DNA of 64,000 bases from Escherichia coli (lineage in GTDB: Bacteria; Pseudomonadota; Gammaproteobacteria; Enterobacterales; Enterobacteriaceae), in NCBI RefSeq assembly GCF_041886205.1, contig NZ_CP169029.1. One strand, given 5' to 3'. This document shows positions 28,541 through 60,906 of this stretch, in pieces; position 1 is the stretch's first letter, and the number at the start of each line of letters is the position of its first letter. The notes beneath the pieces were generated by a model. The model saw only the letters and a program-made list of their open reading frames with translations. It did no database searches and was not told the origin of the DNA. Position numbers and translations under genes: made by a program.

Positions 28541-28794
28541 CGACTAAAAGCCTCTTTGCGTCACATTTTTACAACAATTATTGCAGAGAAGATTAATGCT
28601 ATTGGAATGAAGAGAGTAACGAATGGCTAAACCGAATGACGAAAAATTCTGGAAAACAGCACGCAATTTCGTGAAGTGATTATTTCGTCCCTAAGGAAAC
28701 CTCATAGGATGCCTGCGGGTGCCTGAGACTTTCTGTTTTCAGGCTAACCGGGAATCAGAAAGACGAAGGCCCAGACCGATATTTCTATCAACCG

Positions 28795-29012
<218 letters not shown>

Positions 29013-29083
29013 GGGCAAGCGCGGGGATTTTCCCCGTGCATCTGACTAGCGGATTCATTTTCTCATGGCACCCCTTTTACACT

Positions 29084-29257
29084 TCAGTTAGTGCATGTTT
29101 TTTTCGATGCACTAATAGAACCATCATTACAGACAAATTTGCCGCCTGCCGTACAGTGTGAGATCCCCCCTTTCGAACCAGAACAGGGTTAGCGCCCGGC
29201 ATCGGCATAAAAGGAAACAAGCGTTCCCATAAACAAAATAAGTGCCAGTTTTTTCAT
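29084..29257 (-). pseudogene. ydcA: ydcA interrupted by ochre stop at codon 23 (58-codon frame otherwise intact)
   Basis: Minus-strand translation [63 protein letters not shown]; stop at 29189..29191. Confidence 0.7.
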
Positions 29258-29427
29258 ATAATCTCCATGGTTTATCGAATCTTATGTTCGATTTGAACGT
29301 TATACGCTGGTTTATTTTGATACCGTTGATGAGATCAAAGATCGGGTGAATTGATTAAAGATAAGCCAGATGAACGTATGGACAAGGATTATGGTTTTAT
29401 TTGTCATACAAATAAATATAATAGGCG

Positions 29428-29491
29428 CTTCCGATGTAGACCCGTATTCTTCGCCTGTACCACGGGTCGGTTTTAGTACAGGCGTTTTCTT
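29428..29491 (+). ncRNA. rydC: Hfq-dependent sRNA RydC, ~64 nt
   Basis: CTTCCGATGTAGACCCGTATTCTTCGCCTGTACCACGGGTCGGTTTTAGTACAGGCGTTTTCTT matches recalled RydC sequence; TATAAT -10 at 29417..29422; terminator hairpin plus U-run. Confidence 0.8.
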
Positions 29492-29501
29492 GAAATATCC
29501 T

Positions 29502-30032
29502 TCAGGAACGTTTACGCGGCATCATGCGTAGAAGTGTGTTGTCCTTCCAGAAATAGTGGTGTGCCAGTGCAGCCGCAGCGTGCAACCCGATGACAAAATA
29601 TCCCAGATTCGCCAGCGTTTCATGCCACGACTTTAAGCTATCTACCCGTTCGAAATTGGCCTCTGAAGCGTAAGGCATCGTCAAACCAAACGCAAACCAC
29701 GGGTTACCCCGGTTATACATCATCACCAAACCAATCACTGGCAGCGCAATAAACAGGAGATAAATCACCAAATGTCCCAAATGCGCCAGTCCCGTCATCA
29801 TCGGTTTTGGCTTAGGTATAATCGGCGGGGTTGGGTATTTCAGCCTTAACAAAAGACGAACGACCATCAGCACGAGAATTGAGATGCCGCAGGAAACATG
29901 AATCATGTTGATGAGCGGCCGATCGCTACGTGGGAAGAAACCACGAAACTCCATTGCGCAATACGCTGCGATAACCAGTAAAAAGACCAGCCAGTGAATG
30001 CTGATTTGTAACCTTGAGTATTTATTTTCCAT
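29502..30032 (-). CDS. cybB: Cytochrome b561 CybB, 176 aa
   Basis: ORF 29502..30068; ATG at 30032 (MENKYSRLQISIHWLVFLL); four TM helices with conserved His. Confidence 0.9.
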   Translation of the reverse strand: MENKYSRLQISIHWLVFLLVIAAYCAMEFRGFFPRSDRPLINMIHVSCGISILVLMVVRLLLRLKYPTPPIIPKPKPMMTGLAHLGHLVIYLLFIALPVIGLVMMYNRGNPWFAFGLTMPYASEANFERVDSLKSWHETLANLGYFVIGLHAAAALAHHYFWKDNTLLRMMPRKRS

Positions 30033-30220: not shown

Positions 30221-31222
30221 ATGAGTAAAGTTGGTATTAACGGTTTTGGTCGTATCGGTCGACTGGTGTTGCGTCGATTACTTGAAGTCAAAAGCAACAT
30301 AGACGTTGTCGCTATTAATGATCTCACTTCCCCAAAAATTCTCGCCTACCTGCTGAAACATGATTCAAACTACGGACCATTCCCCTGGAGCGTTGATTTT
30401 ACGGAAGATTCACTTATCGTTGATGGGAAAAGTATCGCGGTTTACGCCGAAAAAGAGGCTAAAAATATTCCGTGGAAAGCGAAAGGTGCAGAAATCATTG
30501 TCGAATGTACTGGCTTTTATACCTCCGCCGATAAATCGCAGGCGCATCTTGATGCTGGTGCGAAGAAGGTGTTGATTTCCGCTCCTGCCGGTGAAATGAA
30601 AACCATCGTTTATAACGTTAATGACGACACTCTGGATGGCAACGACACCATTGTTTCCGTGGCGTCATGCACCACTAACTGCCTTGCGCCGATGGCCAAA
30701 GCCTTGCATGACAGTTTCGGGATAGAAGTCGGCACGATGACGACCATTCATGCCTATACTGGCACCCAGTCACTGGTGGATGGCCCACGTGGTAAAGATT
30801 TACGTGCTTCACGCGCAGCGGCAGAAAATATCATTCCCCACACTACGGGGGCGGCAAAAGCCATTGGTCTGGTGATCCCGGAACTGAGCGGCAAACTGAA
30901 AGGTCATGCGCAACGCGTGCCGGTGAAAACAGGTTCGGTCACTGAACTGGTATCGATTCTCGGAAAAAAAGTGACTGCCGAAGAGGTGAATAACGCACTT
31001 AAACAAGCAACCACCAATAACGAGTCATTTGGTTATACCGATGAAGAAATAGTCTCTTCCGATATCATTGGCAGCCATTTCGGTTCGGTGTTTGATGCCA
31101 CGCAAACGGAAATTACCGCCGTGGGGGATTTACAACTGGTGAAAACGGTCGCCTGGTACGATAACGAATATGGCTTCGTCACGCAGCTTATTCGCACCCT
31201 CGAAAAATTCGCTAAACTCTGA
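30221..31222 (+). CDS. gapC: Glyceraldehyde-3-phosphate dehydrogenase GapC, intact 333 aa
   Basis: Uninterrupted ORF 30221..31222; NAD-binding GxGxxG (NGFGRIGR) and catalytic SCTTNC motif. Confidence 0.9.
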
Positions 31223-38730: not shown

Positions 38731-41701
<2,971 letters not shown>

Positions 41702-41871
41702 TATCAATCCTTGATAATTCGGTTTGCGCTATGGTGCATCAATTCCCCTGACGGAGATATCGCAACACGCCGCTTCATTAAAAATTCAGAATATATCAAG
41801 GTATTGGGGACTCACTGCCAGGAATGATTATCCCCAATTAATCAAATGGTTAAGAAACATTACGTTGTGGA

Positions 41872-44178
41872 TCAATACAACTCATCAAGTTTTCTCATCG
41901 CTTGTTCCCGTATTGCGCGCGTCTTACCGTTAAGCGCCAGCTGGCGGACTAAATCCAGTTCAGGGTTAACAAGCTCTAACGCCAGCAAAGGATCACGTTT
42001 CAGCCTCGCCTTTAATACATCAACTGGAAAACGGGGATTATTCATCGCCACAATCCACCACTCGGGATCAATTTCTGCCGCCAGTACTGCAGGCGGTGTG
42101 TGGCGGTTGTTAAGTGCGCCGAACTTGAAAAATGTGAGATTGCTTTTCGCCAGTGTACTCCACCATATACGATCCGGTTGTTTTGCCAGTACATCCAGTT
42201 GTGCTAACGCATCGGGGTCGAGTGCATAATAAACACGTAATGCTTCATCAACCTGCGCACGGGAGCTGTTTTCCTGCCTCAGAAAAAACTTCGCCCAAAT
42301 ATCATTGCGTGGCGTATTTTGCTGTAATTCCTTGAGGACAACAGCGGGTAAATTATCCCAACTAACTAATGCACTCTCTAAAAAGTCCCAGTCTTCCAAA
42401 CGTATCAGGGCGGTGGCATTTAATAGCATCTGGTCATCAACTTCACCGTGGCTGATAAGCTCAGACAAAATCATATCAGCGCTGGTTTCATATGCAGCTG
42501 AATCTGCTTTCGGATTATTTTTCCGATGTGATAAAGCACGTTGCCAAATTTTTTGTTTCATCGCCGTACTCAGATACTGATTTTTCGCCAGATTACTCCA
42601 CCCCTCAGGATCGTTGAAACGTGTCAATAACCGTTGTAAAGCAGCGTCAGAGTGAATTACCTGCATATCCCGACAGCAAAAGTAGGCAGGGGATTTTTTC
42701 TCCATCCTTTTAACAAAATTAAACTGTAAGTTATCTGGCAACGCTAAAAATAACGCACCTATTAGATCATCGTCATTCTCGAATTTTTGGTATAAATATA
42801 CTGCTATTTTGTCACTCTCTTGTGGCGTCATCCGCAACAATTGACCATGGTGTTTCATCTCTGCCAGCTTTAACGCTAAGCTTGTGACAACATCGTTTGA
42901 TGAATCGTTCGCCAACTGCATTGCCTGATTGTAGGTGAGTTGTCCTCCAGCACCGACCTGACGAATAGAGGAATCATCACTGCGGATATAGCCATCAATA
43001 ATGGATTCGGGCAATAACCACGCATCTTTATAAAGCTCCTGAATGATCATATCCCAATCTCTTTTCGCCAGAGTCATGACGATATCCAGAGGGAGATTTT
43101 CACGTAGCGCAAGATTCAACGGACCGACACCATCAGGTAGATGACTCATTCGCGTCATTATTTCGACAGAGAGCGGTTCACGGTCGAGCAACCCCAGAAC
43201 AACAGGCTGGTAACCCAATTGCTGATCGGTCAACTCCAGAATCTCATTGTCCGGCATATATCTCGCCATACTTTCAATCGTTTGTTCATCATTGCTATTA
43301 ATAAGTTGTTTGCGTAGGTTAGCTGAAATTCCTTTAAGCCTTGGGAGAGTTCGCATTATGGCAAGATCAAATGTCGCAATATCTCGTCCTTCAAATGCAG
43401 CAACGTTGCCTTCATCCAGCATTTGCAATTCCTGCACTAACTCAGGAGAAGGCTTAGGGCGAAACAGCGCTTCTTTTTTCATCTGATTACAGACATTCCC
43501 TGCCATGCGAATATTGCTTCGCTTAAAAATTTCTTTCAGAGCATCTTCATCATTTATTCGACCCTAATAATATGCATCAGGATTTATTATCATCAGCGCT
43601 TTTTTGACATTTTCAGTGTCATTTTTGTCACTCGCACGGACCATGAATTCACTATTTGTCGAAGACGCAACAACAGGTGCAATTATGTCATTGATAAATA
43701 TCCCACGCGCATTAATACTCCCCTTAATCGTAGACGGATTATCGTAATATGAGTCGATAAATACCAGTCCACTTGCATTTATCGAACCGGTAATTAACAG
43801 TGGCGAATCTGTAACTATATTTGTTGCCGTCACGTTACCGAGAATAACCCATGGATTAGAAAGAGAGAAAGTGGAAATATTACCTTTGACTGTCAAATTG
43901 CCAAGAACAATCAATTTTTGATTACTCTCTATATTACCTTCTACCACTAAATCGCCACGATGCACTTTCCAGTCCGATGCAGATAAACCGAAGGGGACAA
44001 GATTCACGCTACTGTTGATAGCTTGTTCAACTTGTTGTTTATCTTCAGCGGTAGCTGCAGATAAAAATGGTTCAATATCAACTGCATTTGCAACACATCG
44101 AAGTTCCGCCTGTACTGGAAGACTCAGCATAAACAGGGGAAGTAAACCTATCCAGCTGCAAATCCTGGGCTTAAACAT
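41872..44178 (-). pseudogene. ydbD: ydbD (DUF2773) split by in-frame amber codon into 204/206-aa and 544-aa ORFs
   Basis: ORFs 43564..44184 and 41872..43506 are in the same frame, separated by TAG at 43564..43566 and 19 open codons; total matches a 768-codon frame from ATG 44178. Confidence 0.65.
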
Positions 44179-45310: not shown

Positions 45311-48300
45311 TTAGAACGTTTTCTTGAAGTTCAGCATCACGCCTTTGTCGCTGATGCCGTCCTCTTTCCAGTTGTACGCATCCAGATTCAGCGAACTTTC
45401 TTTGCTGCTGTACTTCACGCCGACGCTTGCCAGGCTGTTAATGCCGCCGCCCTTCTGACCGTCATCGACGTTAAAGTGCTGACTGCCTGCGCCTGCCAGG
45501 CTTGCCGTACGCTGGCTCTTCGCGTAGCTCAGGTTCGGCCCGCCTTCCAGCGTGGCGTTCGCACTCCAGCCGTCTTTTCCTGCATAATCCAGCTTCAGCC
45601 CGACGATGCTGTCCACCGCCGTTTCGCTGCCGCTGTTCATATTCAGGTTAAAGTCTCCGGCGTTACGCTCCTTATAGCCACCTTCCAGTGTGTGACGCAG
45701 TTTTACACCCGCATATGGCGTAACCTTCAGTCCTTCGCTCGGTTCGAAAGTCTTCGCTCCTTCGCTACGGAACTCCAGGTACTGCTGCTTCACGTCGGTA
45801 TCAGCCGTTTTGTTCGTGTTGCTAAATGCAATCGAGCGGCTGCTGTCAAGGTTGTGAACGTCGTAACGCAAGGCGTTATTCCAGTTCATGCCATTGTCGA
45901 AGGACATCTGATGTTTCAGGCCAAAGAACTGGCTATAACCGCCTGTAACGCCATTATCACCCGCTTTCTGCGCACCATCACCATCGAGACGAGCGATACC
46001 GTACTCCAGACTCATCGTCTGGCTTTCGCTCAGGTCGATGGTTTTACGCAATGCCAGCATGTCGTATTCGGTATTATTACCTAACTCGGCACGCGGATCG
46101 CCTTTCGCGACAACGTTGAACGCCAGACCGTTACCTACCTTCGGTGCGGCATCCGCCAACATACTAAAGCGGTTGCTTAACACGCGCGCTTCGCGGAATA
46201 CCGTGGTCGCCTGGCTACCGCTGACCTGTTTCAGAGCGCTGTTCAGTTCAGCAGTCGTGCCGACGTTCAGGCTGGTAAACAGTTCGTTGTTGGTGTAACC
46301 CGCATCCAGTGCTTTCGCGATGTCATTCACCGAAGCATCTGTTGCCACATCGGTATAAGCGTTTTTGCTCATGGTGACGTCAACGTTACCGCTGGCATCG
46401 GTGCTGCCTTTAGCAGTCCATACCACGGAGGTTGAGGTGATAGCATCCGCGTCGGTCAGGTTGCTGCCCTCCACCACGTTATCAAAATTAACGGTGGTGT
46501 CTGCCGTACAAGCGGTAAACCCGGTGTTGATCCCCACGCCGTTCATGCTGGCATTGTTGACCCTGAGCTTACCGGCGCTGCCATCGGCACTCGTTCCCAC
46601 CACGTAACCGTTGAGATTATTCATGCCGCCATCAACTGCATCACTTCCCGGCGTTAGGCTAACCGTAGTGGGATTCGGTACATCCGGCAACGTATAGTCG
46701 CCATAATGCAATTCCGTGTTATTACCGTTGTTACCGTTCACGCCTTCAACATTGACGCTGTCGCCCTGCTTAATCAGCCCCGATCCTGTCACGCCATCCG
46801 CAATGACCACCGTGCCGTTGTTGACCACGTGACCTTCTGTACCCAGCACGCTGAATGCAAACGAGTCATTGGCGAAGATATTGATGGTGCCGTTGTTCTC
46901 GATCACCGCATCCGCCGTGGCGTTAGCATCGAGTTGCATACCGATCATGCCCGTATCGGTAGTGCCCTCTGTACCGAGGTTGATGGTGCCAGTGTTAACC
47001 AGTTGCGCATTCTTATCACCTTCCATAGCCACAGCACCGGTGCCGCTGATATTCATCGTGCCGTCATTCTGCGCAATGAAGTTACTGTGAGTGAATTTCA
47101 CGGCGCTGGTACTGTCGTGGTCGAAGTTGATGACCCCGTTATCCAGATTCCAGAAGAATGCGCTCTGATCGCCAGCGTTATTGGCGCTCACCACCAGCGA
47201 CTTCGCAGAGACATCAATCGTTCCATCGTTGATAAAGCGACCATTCCCACCCCACATATTGACAGCACCGTTATGTGAGGAATTACTGATGTCCATGTGA
47301 CCAGTGTTATAAAGCGTACCGGACTGATTAATATGCACAGCATTCTTGTTGTTATCGAGGATAAACTCACCGCTGTTATTGAAGACGGCGTTGTTATTAA
47401 CTTCCAGCATACCTGCGTTATTGCCGCCACTGCTACTACCGAGGCGCCAGGTTCCTTCGTTATTGACCCAGGCATCACCGGTTAATGCAGAACCATTGTC
47501 CACTTTGCCATCTTGTAGGTTATTAAAGATGCCACTGGTCTGAATAATACGTTTACTCACCGTACCACTGTTATTAAAGACGCCGGATTTTTGCACAACA
47601 TTGCTAATAGTACCGGAGTTGTTCACCAGATTAGTGCTAGCCCCAGCATACATTGTCACATTACCGTTGATGGTACCCTCATTATTGAGTACCCCCCCCT
47701 GAGCATCAATATTACCCATCGAGCCAGCATTATCTATTACAGCATCTGGTGCCAATTTCACCATGGAGTTAATAATCCCCGTAGAGGCATTTTCGAGCGT
47801 ACCACTCCGAACGTTAATATCACTACCAGAAGCCGTCCCCGCATTAATAACGCTTCCGGGCACTGCGTCAGTTATCACCACAGAATTAATGAAGTTTGTC
47901 GACTCACCATCTGCCACCAGGATATCACCACCAGAGTATTGCAATGAGACATAATTATCGCCCTGGTTATATTCATCCGCACTCTGACAAATACCAAAAG
48001 TACAGAACCTGCCATAGTTAATAATTATTCCTGTTCCATCGCTGTAAAATGCCTGGCCGATATTTGTATCGATATTAATTACACCCGTTATATCATTAAT
48101 TGCCATACCACTATTAATTGCACCCACCGCGAACAGCTGGTTCTCTTGCTGCTTCGTCACGCCCTCATCTGCGGTGAGGTTGATTGTCCCCTGGTTGACA
48201 ACGGTCCCGCCGCTCATCGCCAGCATACCGAAACCTTCGTTATTAACATTGATGGTTCCGGTATTTAACCCACTGGCATCGCCATTTCCGATATCGGTTG

Positions 48301-51196
48301 ACCCCACAAGAACGCCACCGGACATAAGATAAGGATGGGACGTTTGCCAGTAGGATTTACTGATGATATTACCATCGCTGTCCAGTTCGGGAATAAAGCC
48401 ATCGACATTGATTTCCCCGGCGTTGGTCGCCGTGCCTTTAGATGCGGCGACGGCATAAATCCCCGCCCCCTGCAGATTCATGGTGGCGTCGGATTCATTG
48501 ATCACGCTGCCATCATTACTGGCCCACAGACCATAGTTGGCACCGAAATACCATTTCAGAGGGGCTTCAGATATCCCTCCGGCAAAAGCAGGCGTCGTTA
48601 CAGAAAGCAGATTTATCACGCCACCCGACGCATTCGTAACCTGAGAATTCTGGCCACGAGCACGCATTGTCCCCACCGTGGTGAATTGCTCACCGCTAGG
48701 TTTGACATTAATAGTTCCACTATTAGTGATATGTGCACCATTGTTAGCCATCATTAAATCCTGGCTATCCAGCGTGTTAATCACACCTTTGTTTTCAACG
48801 CCGGACTGACTGCCAGTAGCAGAAATAAGCGCACGATTATCGAAGAAATAGTCGGTATCTCTGACTTTACTGGATATATCCGTTACAGAGTTTTTATCAA
48901 ATATAACATTTCCACCGTCCGCCACCGTGACCAACGTAAAGGCACCCACTACCTGACGGATATCCATAGTTGAATGGCCACTAATGTTAACTGTATTATC
49001 ACCAATAATTGATATACCATCTATGATATGCGCGGAGCTATCCCCAGCAACATTAATACCACCATCGATATTAATGGTATTATTCGTACCGGAAACGACC
49101 ATGCCATTCGCCAAGTGATCTTGATATATTAATACACCTTCCACCGTAATATTAACATGACCACTAATATCCACCGTGTTATTTTCACCACTGATCACGC
49201 CGCCGCTTATCGGAGTGATTTGTGCATCAGCGTTATCGCCGAGACTGGAATTAATATTAATGCTTCCGTCAACGCTAATATGGCTGTCATTACCCGTCAG
49301 GCTGAAACCTGTAGCACCCGGCGCATTGCCTTCGCTATCTGGTTGCTGGAATACGTTAATATCTCCGCTTAATTCAACCTGCTCACGGTCACCCACAATG
49401 GATACCCCAGTTCCGTATCGCGAAACATCAATTTCGCCCACGTTACCAAAAACTTCATCATCACCATCTATCAGAACTCCCACAGAACCGGAATCCGTAA
49501 CAACAATCTTGCCTTTATTACTTATCTGCGAGTTATTACCGGCGATATAAATACCCGTTGCCCCTCCGCTGACGTAGAGGTCACCTTCCTGGCTAATTGT
49601 TGCATTGTGCCCAGCAACTTTTGTCCCTACCGCATTCTCACCGTCAACCGTCATATCCCCGGCGATATTCATCTCATTGCCATCGCCAGTGATGGTTATA
49701 CCGGTGGCATTCTCACCCAAAATATTAAGATCATAGGTCGCCAGGGTAATACTATTGTTGTCGCCGATAATCTCCATGCCGGTTGTATCGTCTTTAACCA
49801 ACATCGAGCCAGCAAGCGAAATACTGCTGCTGTCCCCGGTGATTTTTACACCAGTACCGTTATTTGTCGTGGTGATGTCCCCCACATTGACAAAGGTAGT
49901 ATTATCACCATTGATTAACACGCCATAGGGGTTTCCATCACCGTCCGCCTGACCAACATTGATATCACCAATGTTCATAAAGGTTGTCTGATCGCCATCC
50001 AGCAACACACCGATGGAACTGTCATCCACCACAGTAATATTACCTTTATTACTGATGACAGTACCCTTACCCTCGGCGTCAATACCGTGTGCGCCACCGC
50101 TGACGTATAAGTCACCCTGCTGCCTTACAATGGCATCTTCGCCGATAATTTTTGACCCCGTTGAATTTGCACCATCAACGGTCATGTCGCCTTTGATTTC
50201 AACGCGGGCATCATCCCCTGTAATCACACTCCCCGTGCCTCCATTCGCGATTTCAACATCACCAACGGTGTCCAGCGTGGTACGATCGCCATTAACAATA
50301 ACTGCCGCCCCACCATCAACTTCCGTCTCACCATTATTAGTAATGGTGATATCATCACCGGTAAGAATACCTACCACCGAACCTTCACCAATCGCGGTAG
50401 TTTTGCCATCGTTGTTCAGGGTGATGTCGTTACCGTCAACGTTTATCACAACGCCGCCATTCAGCGCGATGTTGCCGCCATGGTCGGTAATAGTGGCATC
50501 GTTAATATGGAAATGTTCGCCAGTTGTACCGTCTGCGGTGGTGAGTGACTCTATGATTATTTCGATTTTTCCCGCTTCGTCATAGCGCCAGGTGGAGGTT
50601 CCGCCAGGATTGACGCCATTGAACGAAGCCGTGTTAGCCGCCTCGTCGACTAACCAATCCTTCACGATTGTGGTAGTGCCGCCAGGTCCGGTAAGCGTAT
50701 AGCTGCCATCGTCATTTTTGGTGTAGGTAAAGGTGGTATCACGTAATTTTAGGGTCTTCGCGTCCTGATCCCAGGTGACATCGTTTTTATAGACCACAGG
50801 ATCGTGTTTGACTGGCGTGTCATCGCCACCGTCGTCCGGGGTATCATCGCCGCCATCATCCGGCGGGACAGGTGTGTCGCCGCCATCATCCGGCACCGGA
50901 GACGGATCGTCATGATGATTATTATTATCGTGGAGTGCATATACTGCGACGCCTGTGACTGCCGCTGCCAGCCCCACTGCAGCCCAGGGTAATAACTCAT
51001 TATCTTCAACTGATTTACACTCTGCCGGCAGCTTTTCTAGCTGTTCTTTACTTAGTGATTTAATATTAGCCGGGCAGCTAATCTTGCTGGATTTACGAGA
51101 TTCATCCGATGTTTCCGCTATCGACGTATCTGCCGCCCATGTCTGACTGCTTAACGCCATTGCAACACAGACACTGAGCAATTTTTTCCTTTGCAT
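45311..51196 (-). CDS. ydbA: Intact autotransporter YdbA, 1961 aa (signal peptide, repetitive beta-helix passenger, C-terminal beta-barrel)
   Basis: Single ORF 45311..51196; signal peptide MQRKKLLSVCVAMALSSQTWA; GD/GN-rich repeats; C-terminal barrel ending KKTF; SD GAGGA upstream of ATG. Confidence 0.85.
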   Translation of the reverse strand: MQRKKLLSVCVAMALSSQTWAADTSIAETSDESRKSSKISCPANIKSLSKEQLEKLPAECKSVEDNELLPWAAVGLAAAVTGVAVYALHDNNNHHDDPSPVPDDGGDTPVPPDDGGDDTPDDGGDDTPVKHDPVVYKNDVTWDQDAKTLKLRDTTFTYTKNDDGSYTLTGPGGTTTIVKDWLVDEAANTASFNGVNPGGTSTWRYDEAGKIEIIIESLTTADGTTGEHFHINDATITDHGGNIALNGGVVINVDGNDITLNNDGKTTAIGEGSVVGILTGDDITITNNGETEVDGGAAVIVNGDRTTLDTVGDVEIANGGTGSVITGDDARVEIKGDMTVDGANSTGSKIIGEDAIVRQQGDLYVSGGAHGIDAEGKGTVISNKGNITVVDDSSIGVLLDGDQTTFMNIGDINVGQADGDGNPYGVLINGDNTTFVNVGDITTTNNGTGVKITGDSSSISLAGSMLVKDDTTGMEIIGDNNSITLATYDLNILGENATGITITGDGNEMNIAGDMTVDGENAVGTKVAGHNATISQEGDLYVSGGATGIYIAGNNSQISNKGKIVVTDSGSVGVLIDGDDEVFGNVGEIDVSRYGTGVSIVGDREQVELSGDINVFQQPDSEGNAPGATGFSLTGNDSHISVDGSININSSLGDNADAQITPISGGVISGENNTVDISGHVNITVEGVLIYQDHLANGMVVSGTNNTINIDGGINVAGDSSAHIIDGISIIGDNTVNISGHSTMDIRQVVGAFTLVTVADGGNVIFDKNSVTDISSKVRDTDYFFDNRALISATGSQSGVENKGVINTLDSQDLMMANNGAHITNSGTINVKPSGEQFTTVGTMRARGQNSQVTNASGGVINLLSVTTPAFAGGISEAPLKWYFGANYGLWASNDGSVINESDATMNLQGAGIYAVAASKGTATNAGEINVDGFIPELDSDGNIISKSYWQTSHPYLMSGGVLVGSTDIGNGDASGLNTGTINVNNEGFGMLAMSGGTVVNQGTINLTADEGVTKQQENQLFAVGAINSGMAINDITGVINIDTNIGQAFYSDGTGIIINYGRFCTFGICQSADEYNQGDNYVSLQYSGGDILVADGESTNFINSVVITDAVPGSVINAGTASGSDINVRSGTLENASTGIINSMVKLAPDAVIDNAGSMGNIDAQGGVLNNEGTINGNVTMYAGASTNLVNNSGTISNVVQKSGVFNNSGTVSKRIIQTSGIFNNLQDGKVDNGSALTGDAWVNNEGTWRLGSSSGGNNAGMLEVNNNAVFNNSGEFILDNNKNAVHINQSGTLYNTGHMDISNSSHNGAVNMWGGNGRFINDGTIDVSAKSLVVSANNAGDQSAFFWNLDNGVINFDHDSTSAVKFTHSNFIAQNDGTMNISGTGAVAMEGDKNAQLVNTGTINLGTEGTTDTGMIGMQLDANATADAVIENNGTINIFANDSFAFSVLGTEGHVVNNGTVVIADGVTGSGLIKQGDSVNVEGVNGNNGNNTELHYGDYTLPDVPNPTTVSLTPGSDAVDGGMNNLNGYVVGTSADGSAGKLRVNNASMNGVGINTGFTACTADTTVNFDNVVEGSNLTDADAITSTSVVWTAKGSTDASGNVDVTMSKNAYTDVATDASVNDIAKALDAGYTNNELFTSLNVGTTAELNSALKQVSGSQATTVFREARVLSNRFSMLADAAPKVGNGLAFNVVAKGDPRAELGNNTEYDMLALRKTIDLSESQTMSLEYGIARLDGDGAQKAGDNGVTGGYSQFFGLKHQMSFDNGMNWNNALRYDVHNLDSSRSIAFSNTNKTADTDVKQQYLEFRSEGAKTFEPSEGLKVTPYAGVKLRHTLEGGYKERNAGDFNLNMNSGSETAVDSIVGLKLDYAGKDGWSANATLEGGPNLSYAKSQRTASLAGAGSQHFNVDDGQKGGGINSLASVGVKYSSKESSLNLDAYNWKEDGISDKGVMLNFKKTF
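50818..50896. repeat. Imperfect tandem repeat (three ~24-30-bp units) encoding Pro/Asp/Gly-rich linker in ydbA
   Basis: Repeated TCGCCGCCATCATCCGG units encoding PDDGGD(D)TP x3. Confidence 0.6.
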
Positions 51197-51597
51197 ATGA
51201 AATTCCTCATAAATAGATGATTACGCAGCCCAGATAAACTGCACAGGGTTAAATAGTTACAAATATTCGAAATCTGGATATTGTTTTTAACAGAATAAAT
51301 ATATTGATTTAGCGAATGCATTTATTCATTAAGTCAATACATCTTTTCTTTAATTTATATTTTTAACGCATTTATTTCAACTTAAAATATGACGCAATTG
51401 AGATTAAATCCGATAACACTGATGAATTAAATAATGCAATTAATTCATGAAATAAATAAATTATCATGTGAATGAAGCATTCATCATCGGCATCTATATG
51501 AAATTAAATGAAAAATAATTCTCAATAGCATTGCAGTTAATATTGAATATTTCAGGAGGTACAACCAGGCAGATTTTTCTCGACGAATACCGACTTA
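51197..51597. promoter_or_regulatory. Highly AT-rich 400-bp intergenic region upstream of ydbA (probable promoter / nucleoid-protein-bound region)
   Basis: Long AT-rich tracts between ydbL stop and ydbA start. Confidence 0.4.
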
Positions 51598-51924
51598 TTA
51601 TTTTTGCAACCACATTCCGTTTATCCCGCGAATGTATTCTCCCGGCTTAGCTTTTGCTACCAGTTTCTGCCCCGCCAATTTTTCCACTTCCGCAACCGGC
51701 AGATTATTTTTCATGGCGAGTTGTTGATAGCTCTTATTACGCGATTCATTAATCCTTTTGACTAACATCTGTGTTTCGGTATCCGCCTTTAATGCAACCA
51801 GATAACCATTATACGTTTCGCCAACACGCCCCTGAGTTCGAGCGTCATCCAGCGTCAGAGCCATCGCACTGGTGCTAAATAAGGCATTAATGACAAAACA
51901 CAGTATTAAACTTCTCTTCATCAT
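51598..51924 (-). CDS. ydbL: Periplasmic protein YdbL (DUF1318), 108 aa
   Basis: ORF 51598..52002; ATG at 51924 (MMKRSLILCFVINALFSTSAMA signal peptide). Confidence 0.8.
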   Translation of the reverse strand: MMKRSLILCFVINALFSTSAMALTLDDARTQGRVGETYNGYLVALKADTETQMLVKRINESRNKSYQQLAMKNNLPVAEVEKLAGQKLVAKAKPGEYIRGINGMWLQK

Positions 51925-51928
51925 CGCC

Positions 51929-52114
51929 TCAGAAAAGATCGCTACGAGTTTCAAGCAGCTCTTCGACATCTTTGTCTGCCTTGATGATGATCTCATGCTC
52001 AATTTTAACGTTCATATTGATAGTGATCGGTTCCTTAGGTGCAGCGACTTCAATGCGAGGCGTACAGCCAACCAGCATAAAAGATGACGTCAACGCAGCC
52101 AGTAAAATTTTCAT
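51929..52114 (-). CDS. ynbE: Lipoprotein YnbE, 61 aa
   Basis: ORF 51929..52114; lipobox LVGC; start overlaps ydbH stop. Confidence 0.8.
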   Translation of the reverse strand: MKILLAALTSSFMLVGCTPRIEVAAPKEPITINMNVKIEHEIIIKADKDVEELLETRSDLF

Positions 52115-60541: not shown

Positions 60542-60570
60542 ATGCTCTGGATAAGGATTATCCAATTCTA

Positions 60571-60679
60571 AAAAAAAGCCCGGACGACTGTTCGGGCTTG
60601 TCTTTTTATATGTTGGAAAATCAGTGGCAATGCAATGGCCCAACAGAAAATAAAATCTGTGACAATAAAGGCATATAAC
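60571..60679 (-). ncRNA. micC: Hfq-dependent sRNA MicC (repressor of ompC), ~109 nt
   Basis: Minus strand GTTATATGCCTTTATTGTCACAGATTTTATTTTCTGTTGGGCC...AAGCCCGAACAGTCGTCCGGGCTTTTTTTT matches recalled MicC; divergent from ompN. Confidence 0.8.
60578..60608. terminator. Bidirectional intrinsic terminator shared by ydbK (+) and micC (-)
   Basis: Hairpin GCCCGGACGACTGTTCGGGC flanked by A-run upstream and T-run downstream. Confidence 0.7.
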
Positions 60680-60906
60680 CCGCGCAGAATAACGTATAGA
60701 AAATTAAAAGTATAATTTTTATTTTGTATGTATTATCTTCGATACATTCACCAGACTTATTATCATTTCAGAAGAATTATTTGATTAAGGTTTTACTTAA
60801 GGCGTAACAAATGATATTTATCGGCTAACTGAACTTCTCCTTTAGGATGTTTTCACTCCCCGAAATGGGGATAAAAGGCAAATAAAATAACTAAAGGATT
60901 TATTCA

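Follow-up and report, generated by a model that had tools for sequence, protein, structure and literature searches.

In the stretch of Escherichia coli DNA studied here (64,000 nucleotides of contig NZ_CP169029.1, NCBI RefSeq assembly GCF_041886205.1; hereafter, the window), the interval between the small gene ydcA and the cytochrome gene cybB is empty in an annotation track built from open reading frames (ORFs). A preliminary description of the same DNA had placed there a 64-nt match to the small RNA RydC, with an upstream TATAAT and a terminator hairpin, next to a ydcA that carries a nonsense mutation. The locus therefore raises the question of whether an intact rydC gene lies in this interval, and, if it does, whether the RNA keeps the parts with which RydC is known to act, how its promoter is likely to be controlled, and what the decay of the adjacent gene tells about it.

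The identity of the element was addressed by scanning the whole window against 4227 Rfam families, which yielded three matches above the gathering score, RydC among them. The RydC family RF00505 matched positions 29428-29491 on the + strand over model positions 1-64 of 64, not truncated, with 92.5 bits (E=5e-17), a score almost twice the gathering score of 48. RydC was again retrieved when the region 28600-29700 was rescanned at a low threshold, and no other family with E<=1 was found at the same spot. The sequence, CTTCCGATGTAGACCCGTATTCTTCGCCTGTACCACGGGTCGGTTTTAGTACAGGCGTTTTCTT, shares 64/64 bases with rydC (b4597) of K-12 MG1655. A test set beforehand, namely a comparison of seed and terminator with the reference RydC, accordingly gave zero mismatches, and the 64-nt match proposed in the preliminary description was borne out by both the family model and the reference gene. 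The identical 64-mer was found in 4063 of 5426 complete E. coli genomes and some match in 5411 of the 5426, the non-identical copies being mostly one base off. No sequence evidence opposing the identification as RydC was found. These data indicate that the window almost certainly carries a chromosomal, intact rydC at 29428-29491 (+), a gene for a 64-nt Hfq-dependent small regulatory RNA, in the same allele as the characterised K-12 gene.

No RefSeq feature lies beneath the RydC 64-mer among the genomes listed, and a curated ncRNA is annotated only in K-12. The ORF-based track is empty at rydC because RefSeq has no feature there, as is expected for a non-coding gene, and the absence noted in the preliminary description is explained in this way. 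The gene is a known object in canonical form and brings no new biology; marking it completes a track that lists ORFs only, and the value of doing so is mostly that of annotation. In the E. coli collection, 5 of the ~5400 rydC-region matches lay on plasmid-labelled records, perhaps because a replicon was mislabelled or because plasmids carry large pieces of chromosome.

All of the parts on which the published activity of RydC depends were found in the RNA encoded here. The 5' seed, RydC nt 1-11 CUUCCGAUGUA (29428-29438, +), is unpaired both in the Rfam consensus and in the computed fold; its CUUCCGAUGU equals the Rfam consensus and K-12, and it showed no change in 12 Escherichia sequences. Downstream of the seed, the Rfam structure line gives a pseudoknot stem 1 formed by nt 12-18 (29439-29445) with nt 35-41 (29462-29468) on the + strand, with an energy of -10.5 kcal/mol when taken alone. 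Stem 2 is formed by nt 25-33 (29452-29460) with nt 49-57 (29476-29484), also on the + strand; this GC-rich helix of 9 bp is the minimum free energy (MFE) and centroid structure, at -13.8 kcal/mol. The two stems interleave as an H-type pseudoknot with a summed energy of -24.3 kcal/mol, a value reached by the best interleaved helix pair in 0 of 500 dinucleotide-preserving shuffles. This explicit two-helix shuffle test was used in place of plain MFE folding. Nested-only folding of the 64-mer returned stem 2 alone with z = -0.48, no better than shuffles, which is expected because nested folding cannot represent a pseudoknot. At the sequence level, the Hfq-contact residues U23, U24, U46 and U47 are all present, and so are G37 and G39 of helix 1. 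Hfq was reported to contact the U-rich tail and the U23U24 and U46U47 steps of RydC, a role being given to the seed as well, and mutation of G37 or G39 was reported to destabilise the RNA (PMC4337610).

The terminator hairpin doubles as stem 2 of the RydC pseudoknot. The preliminary description had reported a terminator hairpin with a U-tract, and the 9-bp stem 2 is indeed followed directly by TTTTCTT at 29485-29491 (+), transcribed as a 3' U-rich tail UUUUCUU that reads, from its sequence, as the termination signal and the Hfq proximal-face binding site. The base after the tail, at 29492, is G in the window versus T in K-12 and differs among species. A generic terminator scan left the real terminator unlisted and reported instead a small alternative hairpin at 29453-29467, because the 15-nt loop of the real terminator exceeds the 8-nt limit of the scan.

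The position of this hairpin suggests a second reading of the conserved element. The gene cybB (cytochrome b561 / superoxide oxidase; 29502-30032, -), assigned from its ORF and from annotation in K-12 and the nearest genomes, is convergent with rydC, and its stop codon lies 10 nt from the RydC 3' end. The element could thus be mainly the signal that forms the 3' end of cybB transcripts, a bidirectional terminator whose likeness to RydC is secondary, and the generic scan gave no further candidate terminator for cybB in the vicinity. On the - strand, however, the hairpin is followed by AAGAAUAC and by no U tract, and the scan listed no - strand terminator at this place. Moreover, the covariance-model match is strand-specific, and the seed and 47 nt of promoter are conserved although such a terminator would need neither of them. 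We consider it extremely unlikely that the element is mainly a cybB terminator, and read it as rydC, whose hairpin may have a secondary role in stopping cybB transcription.

How strongly is this gene constrained? The window and K-12 differ locally at only 1.4% of positions; identity with K-12 is weak evidence of constraint, because only ~1 difference per 64 nt would be expected by chance. The real evidence for the constraint that seems to act on rydC is the comparison across Escherichia species. A cross-genus scan with the strict pattern CTTCCGATGT-N11-CTTCGCCTG gave six Escherichia loci (from E. albertii, E. whittamii, two further Escherichia species and two divergent E. coli), as well as two chance matches in Lachnospiraceae and Verrucomicrobiaceae MAGs; with this strict pattern, no rydC copies of Salmonella, Klebsiella or Citrobacter were obtained. 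Column identity was calculated from eight Escherichia sequences, namely the window, K-12 and the six scan loci. Its mean was 0.975 over RydC (29428-29491) and 0.92 over a conserved promoter block immediately upstream (29381-29427, +), and it fell to 0.69 further upstream (29278-29380), a zone in which the neighbouring DNA differs in several Escherichia species. On the other side, the mean was 0.71 in the spacer to cybB (29492-29501) and 0.93 at the cybB 3' end (29502-29551). In these eight sequences, the conservation of RydC is sharply bounded on both sides.

The conservation extends to the pairing of the two helices. All 9 pairs of stem 2 are invariant in Escherichia, as is the seed, and none of the variants seen in stem 1 disrupts the helix: with A13G a G-U pair is formed, with A35G a U-G pair, and G42U adds an A-U pair. 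Across Escherichia, 97% of helix cells are paired, versus 24-42% when the partners are slid against each other. Double compensatory changes were seen in neither helix in this Escherichia-only sample. The changes seen were all one-sided, and support for the pseudoknot consists of this compatibility, of the energy and of published structures.

The same alignment bears on a possible small protein encoded by the region. RydC is overlapped by two ORFs, one of 41 aa at 29351-29476 (+) and one of 53 aa at 29370-29531 (+); neither is interrupted in the window or in K-12, and of the 7 Escherichia sequences besides the window, 6 keep the 41-aa frame open. Among these 7, the 53-aa frame is intact only in K-12; the other 6 have a stop at codon 4 or lack the start. 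The start codon of the 41-aa frame is a TTG that precedes the rydC promoter, and in E. albertii this frame is interrupted; the N-terminal third of the frame varies freely, and its constant part is exactly the RNA gene. Furthermore, the conserved block starts at the promoter and at neither start codon. A coding role has hardly any credibility in the face of this cross-species comparison, and the coding readings of both ORFs were rejected.

We next turn to the promoter, which the RNA gene and its conserved flank point to. The TATAAT described in the preliminary account is present as the -10 box of the rydC sigma-70 promoter at 29417-29422 (+), is invariant in the eight Escherichia sequences, and ends 5 nt before the first RydC base. 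The rydC promoter was described as having "a perfect -10 box ... but there is no obvious -35 box" (PMC11340327). In agreement with this, a generic promoter scan found no -35 hexamer and no -35/-10 pair at rydC; the promoter is missing from that scan because it has no -35 box.

Transcription of rydC is known to be strongly repressed. By means of a transposon screen, deletion, complementation and Northern blot, the GntR-family regulator YieP was demonstrated to repress rydC ~20-fold in E. coli; RydC is barely or not detectable in wild-type K-12 under standard conditions and appears on deletion of yieP (PMC11340327). That study mapped no binding site for YieP at rydC, and it states that the 2018 ChIP-exo regulon of YieP does not include rydC. 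Another report gives the YieP ChIP-exo motif as atTTGTaTGAcaAAT, names rydC and ydcA among the candidate targets, and describes ydcA transcription as unaffected by yieP deletion (PMC7642389); in the available part of its supplement, no ChIP-exo peak coordinates at the rydC locus were found.

A candidate YieP operator, ATTTGTCATACAAAT, was identified by its match to the motif at 29399-29413 (+), which corresponds to -29 to -15 of rydC. It is a perfect inverted repeat, ATTTGT/ACAAAT with a 3-nt centre, and it agrees with the reverse complement of atTTGTaTGAcaAAT at 15/15 positions, scored against the consensus string as quoted in PMC7642389. No other match to the YieP motif with <=2 mismatches occurs elsewhere in the 64-kb window. 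As a positive control, we used the 16-kb K-12 locus of yohJK, the YieP-repressed operon whose yohJ is the best-validated YieP target; here, a single match with <=3 mismatches was found; it is located 24-38 nt ahead of the yohJ start codon, and all of its high-information positions agree with the motif. At rydC, the site lies between the place of the absent -35 box and the -10 box, inside the promoter block conserved across Escherichia. A site that covers the core promoter of rydC, ~140-155 nt away from the start codon of ydcA, fits the unaffected transcription of ydcA in the yieP deletion. Position 29403, which carries little information in the motif, reads A in K-12 and G here, and the K-12 site agrees at 14/15. 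The perfect palindrome is carried by 3991 of 5426 E. coli genomes and the K-12 allele by 1239; that the perfect palindrome might be a peculiarity of this lineage was considered and rejected, since it is the majority E. coli allele.

Judging from motif agreement and position, ATTTGTCATACAAAT at -29 to -15 is probably a direct YieP operator on rydC, to which the regulator would bind. If this is true, the block from -47 to -1 would be a portable control cassette of rydC, independent of the gene upstream, and the fact that the promoter block is unchanged here despite the decay of ydcA would be explained. The perfect motif also offers a concrete site for a repression that was shown genetically but, in the literature examined, is unmapped.

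The divergent neighbour ydcA is a pseudogene in the window. Its 57-codon frame at 29084-29257 (-) has a premature TAA at codon 23, and in the alignment with K-12 an AAA codon is replaced by TAA (+ strand 29189-29191), as the preliminary description had recognised; in the ORF list, only 22 aa are left, MKKLALILFMGTLVSFYADAGR. The two closest genomes, 6EVA and wlxctx60, have ydcA flagged with an "internal stop" by PGAP. The allele was counted with an exact 31-mer centred on the mutated base, which matches only carriers, and was found in 4 of 5426 complete genomes: VE-T9, XJ5.2, 6EVA and wlxctx60. The nonsense mutation arose independently and recently, within this lineage only, and the allele may serve as a rare lineage marker. 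The rydC start follows 237 nt downstream, and the promoter of rydC is not touched by the mutation. The preliminary description had set a conserved RydC against a broken ydcA. Both facts stand, but the contrast carries little weight as evidence at so small a local divergence. The placement of rydC between ydcA and cybB was likewise correct, the order being that of K-12 and the nearest genomes, and ydcA-rydC-cybB is the standard arrangement in E. coli and Shigella (PMC11340327).

The decay of ydcA and the tight control of the promoter together raise the possibility that rydC is present by descent but silent, a conserved passenger that is permanently repressed or whose partners are missing. The undetectability of RydC in wild-type K-12 unless yieP is deleted would fit this, as would the perfect 15/15 operator in this strain, the decayed ydcA next to it, and the several more pseudogenes that the nearest relative has in the region. 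On the other hand, the RNA, the -10 box and the promoter block are all intact and show few or no differences across the genus; the operator allele, being that of the E. coli majority, is no peculiarity of the strain; and rydC is normally described as tightly repressed and released on induction. A permanently silent rydC is for these reasons very unlikely, and we keep to the reading of an intact gene. RydC tunes the cyclopropane fatty acid content of the membrane under stress, and an intact copy would imply that this circuit is kept.

The surroundings of the locus gave several observations of their own. The window is collinear with E. coli wlxctx60 (NZ_AP045833.1) at 99.97% identity. The sole break in collinearity is at 50850-50894; here, two BLAST segments share 45 nt of the window and leave out ~256 nt of wlxctx60, and by the end of the window the two sequences are 300 nt out of register. 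This break looks like a copy-number difference of a ~300-bp repeat inside a ydbA-like pseudogene. In wlxctx60 (L015 11780-18900; window ~46000-52000), ydbL is followed by this 6.2-kb pectate-lyase-fold pseudogene and then by pdxI, with no feaR, feaB, tynA or paa genes between ydbL and pdxI. In K-12, a feaR/feaB/tynA/paa cluster sits between these two genes, and its absence would explain a distance between micC and rydC of only 31 kb in the window. The MicC small RNA is full-length at 60562-60682 (-), with a score of 125.3 bits for RF00121 against a gathering score of 90; by collinearity with wlxctx60, it adjoins ompN and nifJ/ydbK. In another stretch of wlxctx60 (L015 19823-23964; window ~39700-44000), ydbD has an internal stop, and a truncated ynbA-like fragment abuts an N-terminally truncated hydrolase/methyltransferase gene. 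Taken together, ydcA, the ydbA-like gene, ydbD and the ynbA-like fragment suggest local gene decay in a lineage of small genomes (4.57-4.65 Mb). The gene gapC (type I glyceraldehyde-3-phosphate dehydrogenase; 30221-31222, +) forms an intact ORF of 333 aa in the window, as it does in the nearest genomes; the K-12 MG1655 annotation lists it as a pseudogene.

Beyond ydcA, a hokB/mokB/sokB type I toxin-antitoxin locus was found at 28717-29012 (+), with the mokB ORF at 28805-28972 (+) and the hokB ORF at 28863-29012 (+). The Rfam family "sok" (RF01794, 97.8 bits) was matched on the + strand, the same as that of the hokB mRNA, and sokB of K-12 is annotated opposite hokB and maps to roughly 28759-28815 (-). 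Because the match shares the strand of hokB and K-12 sokB lies opposite, what the sok model recognises here seems to be the sense leader and not the antisense RNA. A 22-aa ORF, MNPLVRCTGKIPALALTWTCRP, at 28990-29058 (-) lies antisense to hokB and overlaps its 3' end; this ORF is located at the position of K-12 yncP and is annotated as a hypothetical protein in the nearest genomes.

From these parts, a course of action can be proposed for rydC, in which the steps beyond those tested on the sequence are taken from published work on the identical RNA. YieP, a GntR/FadR-type regulator, would normally shut the rydC promoter, most likely via the palindrome at -29 to -15; this palindrome overlaps the expected footprint of the polymerase, and repression may thus act by promoter occlusion. 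Once the promoter is released, transcription would stop at the stem 2 hairpin and UUUUCUU and yield the 64-nt RNA, which is predicted to fold as an H-type pseudoknot with ~11 nt free at the 5' end, a fold with which the sequence was shown to be compatible. Hfq would hold the U tail and the U23U24 and U46U47 steps, as published for the identical RNA. The free 5' seed would then pair with the long, sigma-70-dependent isoform of the cfa mRNA at ~-110 to -99. According to published work, this pairing blocks an RNase E site and Rho-dependent termination, and the outcome would be more cyclopropane fatty acid synthase and altered membrane lipids. The weaker published targets yejABEF, csgD, pheA and trpE may be regulated as well.

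The pairing with cfa was examined with the K-12 leader, the hfq, yieP and cfa genes of this strain all lying outside the window. RydC nt 3-13, UCCGAUGUAGA, form an 11-bp duplex with one G-U pair with UCUACGUCGGA of the K-12 cfa long 5' UTR, at ~-110 to -99. The duplex at this published position has an energy of -18.3 kcal/mol, which was equalled by 5 of 500 shuffled K-12 cfa leaders. Activation of cfa by the RydC seed and stabilisation of RydC by Hfq have been reported (PMC4337610, PMC11340327, bioRxiv 10.1101/271551).

Compared with known systems, the locus is closest to that of K-12 MG1655 (b4597), with which it shares the same 64 nt, -10 box, neighbours and orientation, as well as the pseudoknot helices, seed and U tail. 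Three differences lie beside the RNA (window first): 29382 A versus G, 29403 G versus A, and 29492 G versus T, the second of which makes the YieP palindrome 15/15 here and 14/15 in K-12. In addition, K-12 rydC is annotated as 65 nt, and K-12 ydcA is intact. By published descriptions, RydC of Salmonella enterica belongs to the same family and has the same seed, pseudoknot fold and activation of cfa, with cybB also as its 3' neighbour, whereas its 5' neighbour is STM1638 where E. coli has ydcA (PMC11340327); the structure of Salmonella RydC was solved in complex with E. coli Hfq (PMC4337610). ArrS and CpxQ target the same long cfa leader as RydC but are unrelated to it in sequence, genomic origin and structure, and no Rfam match to either was found at the rydC locus. 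ArrS pairs at the RydC region of cfa and also stabilises the mRNA (bioRxiv 10.1101/271551), whereas CpxQ represses cfa, which RydC activates.
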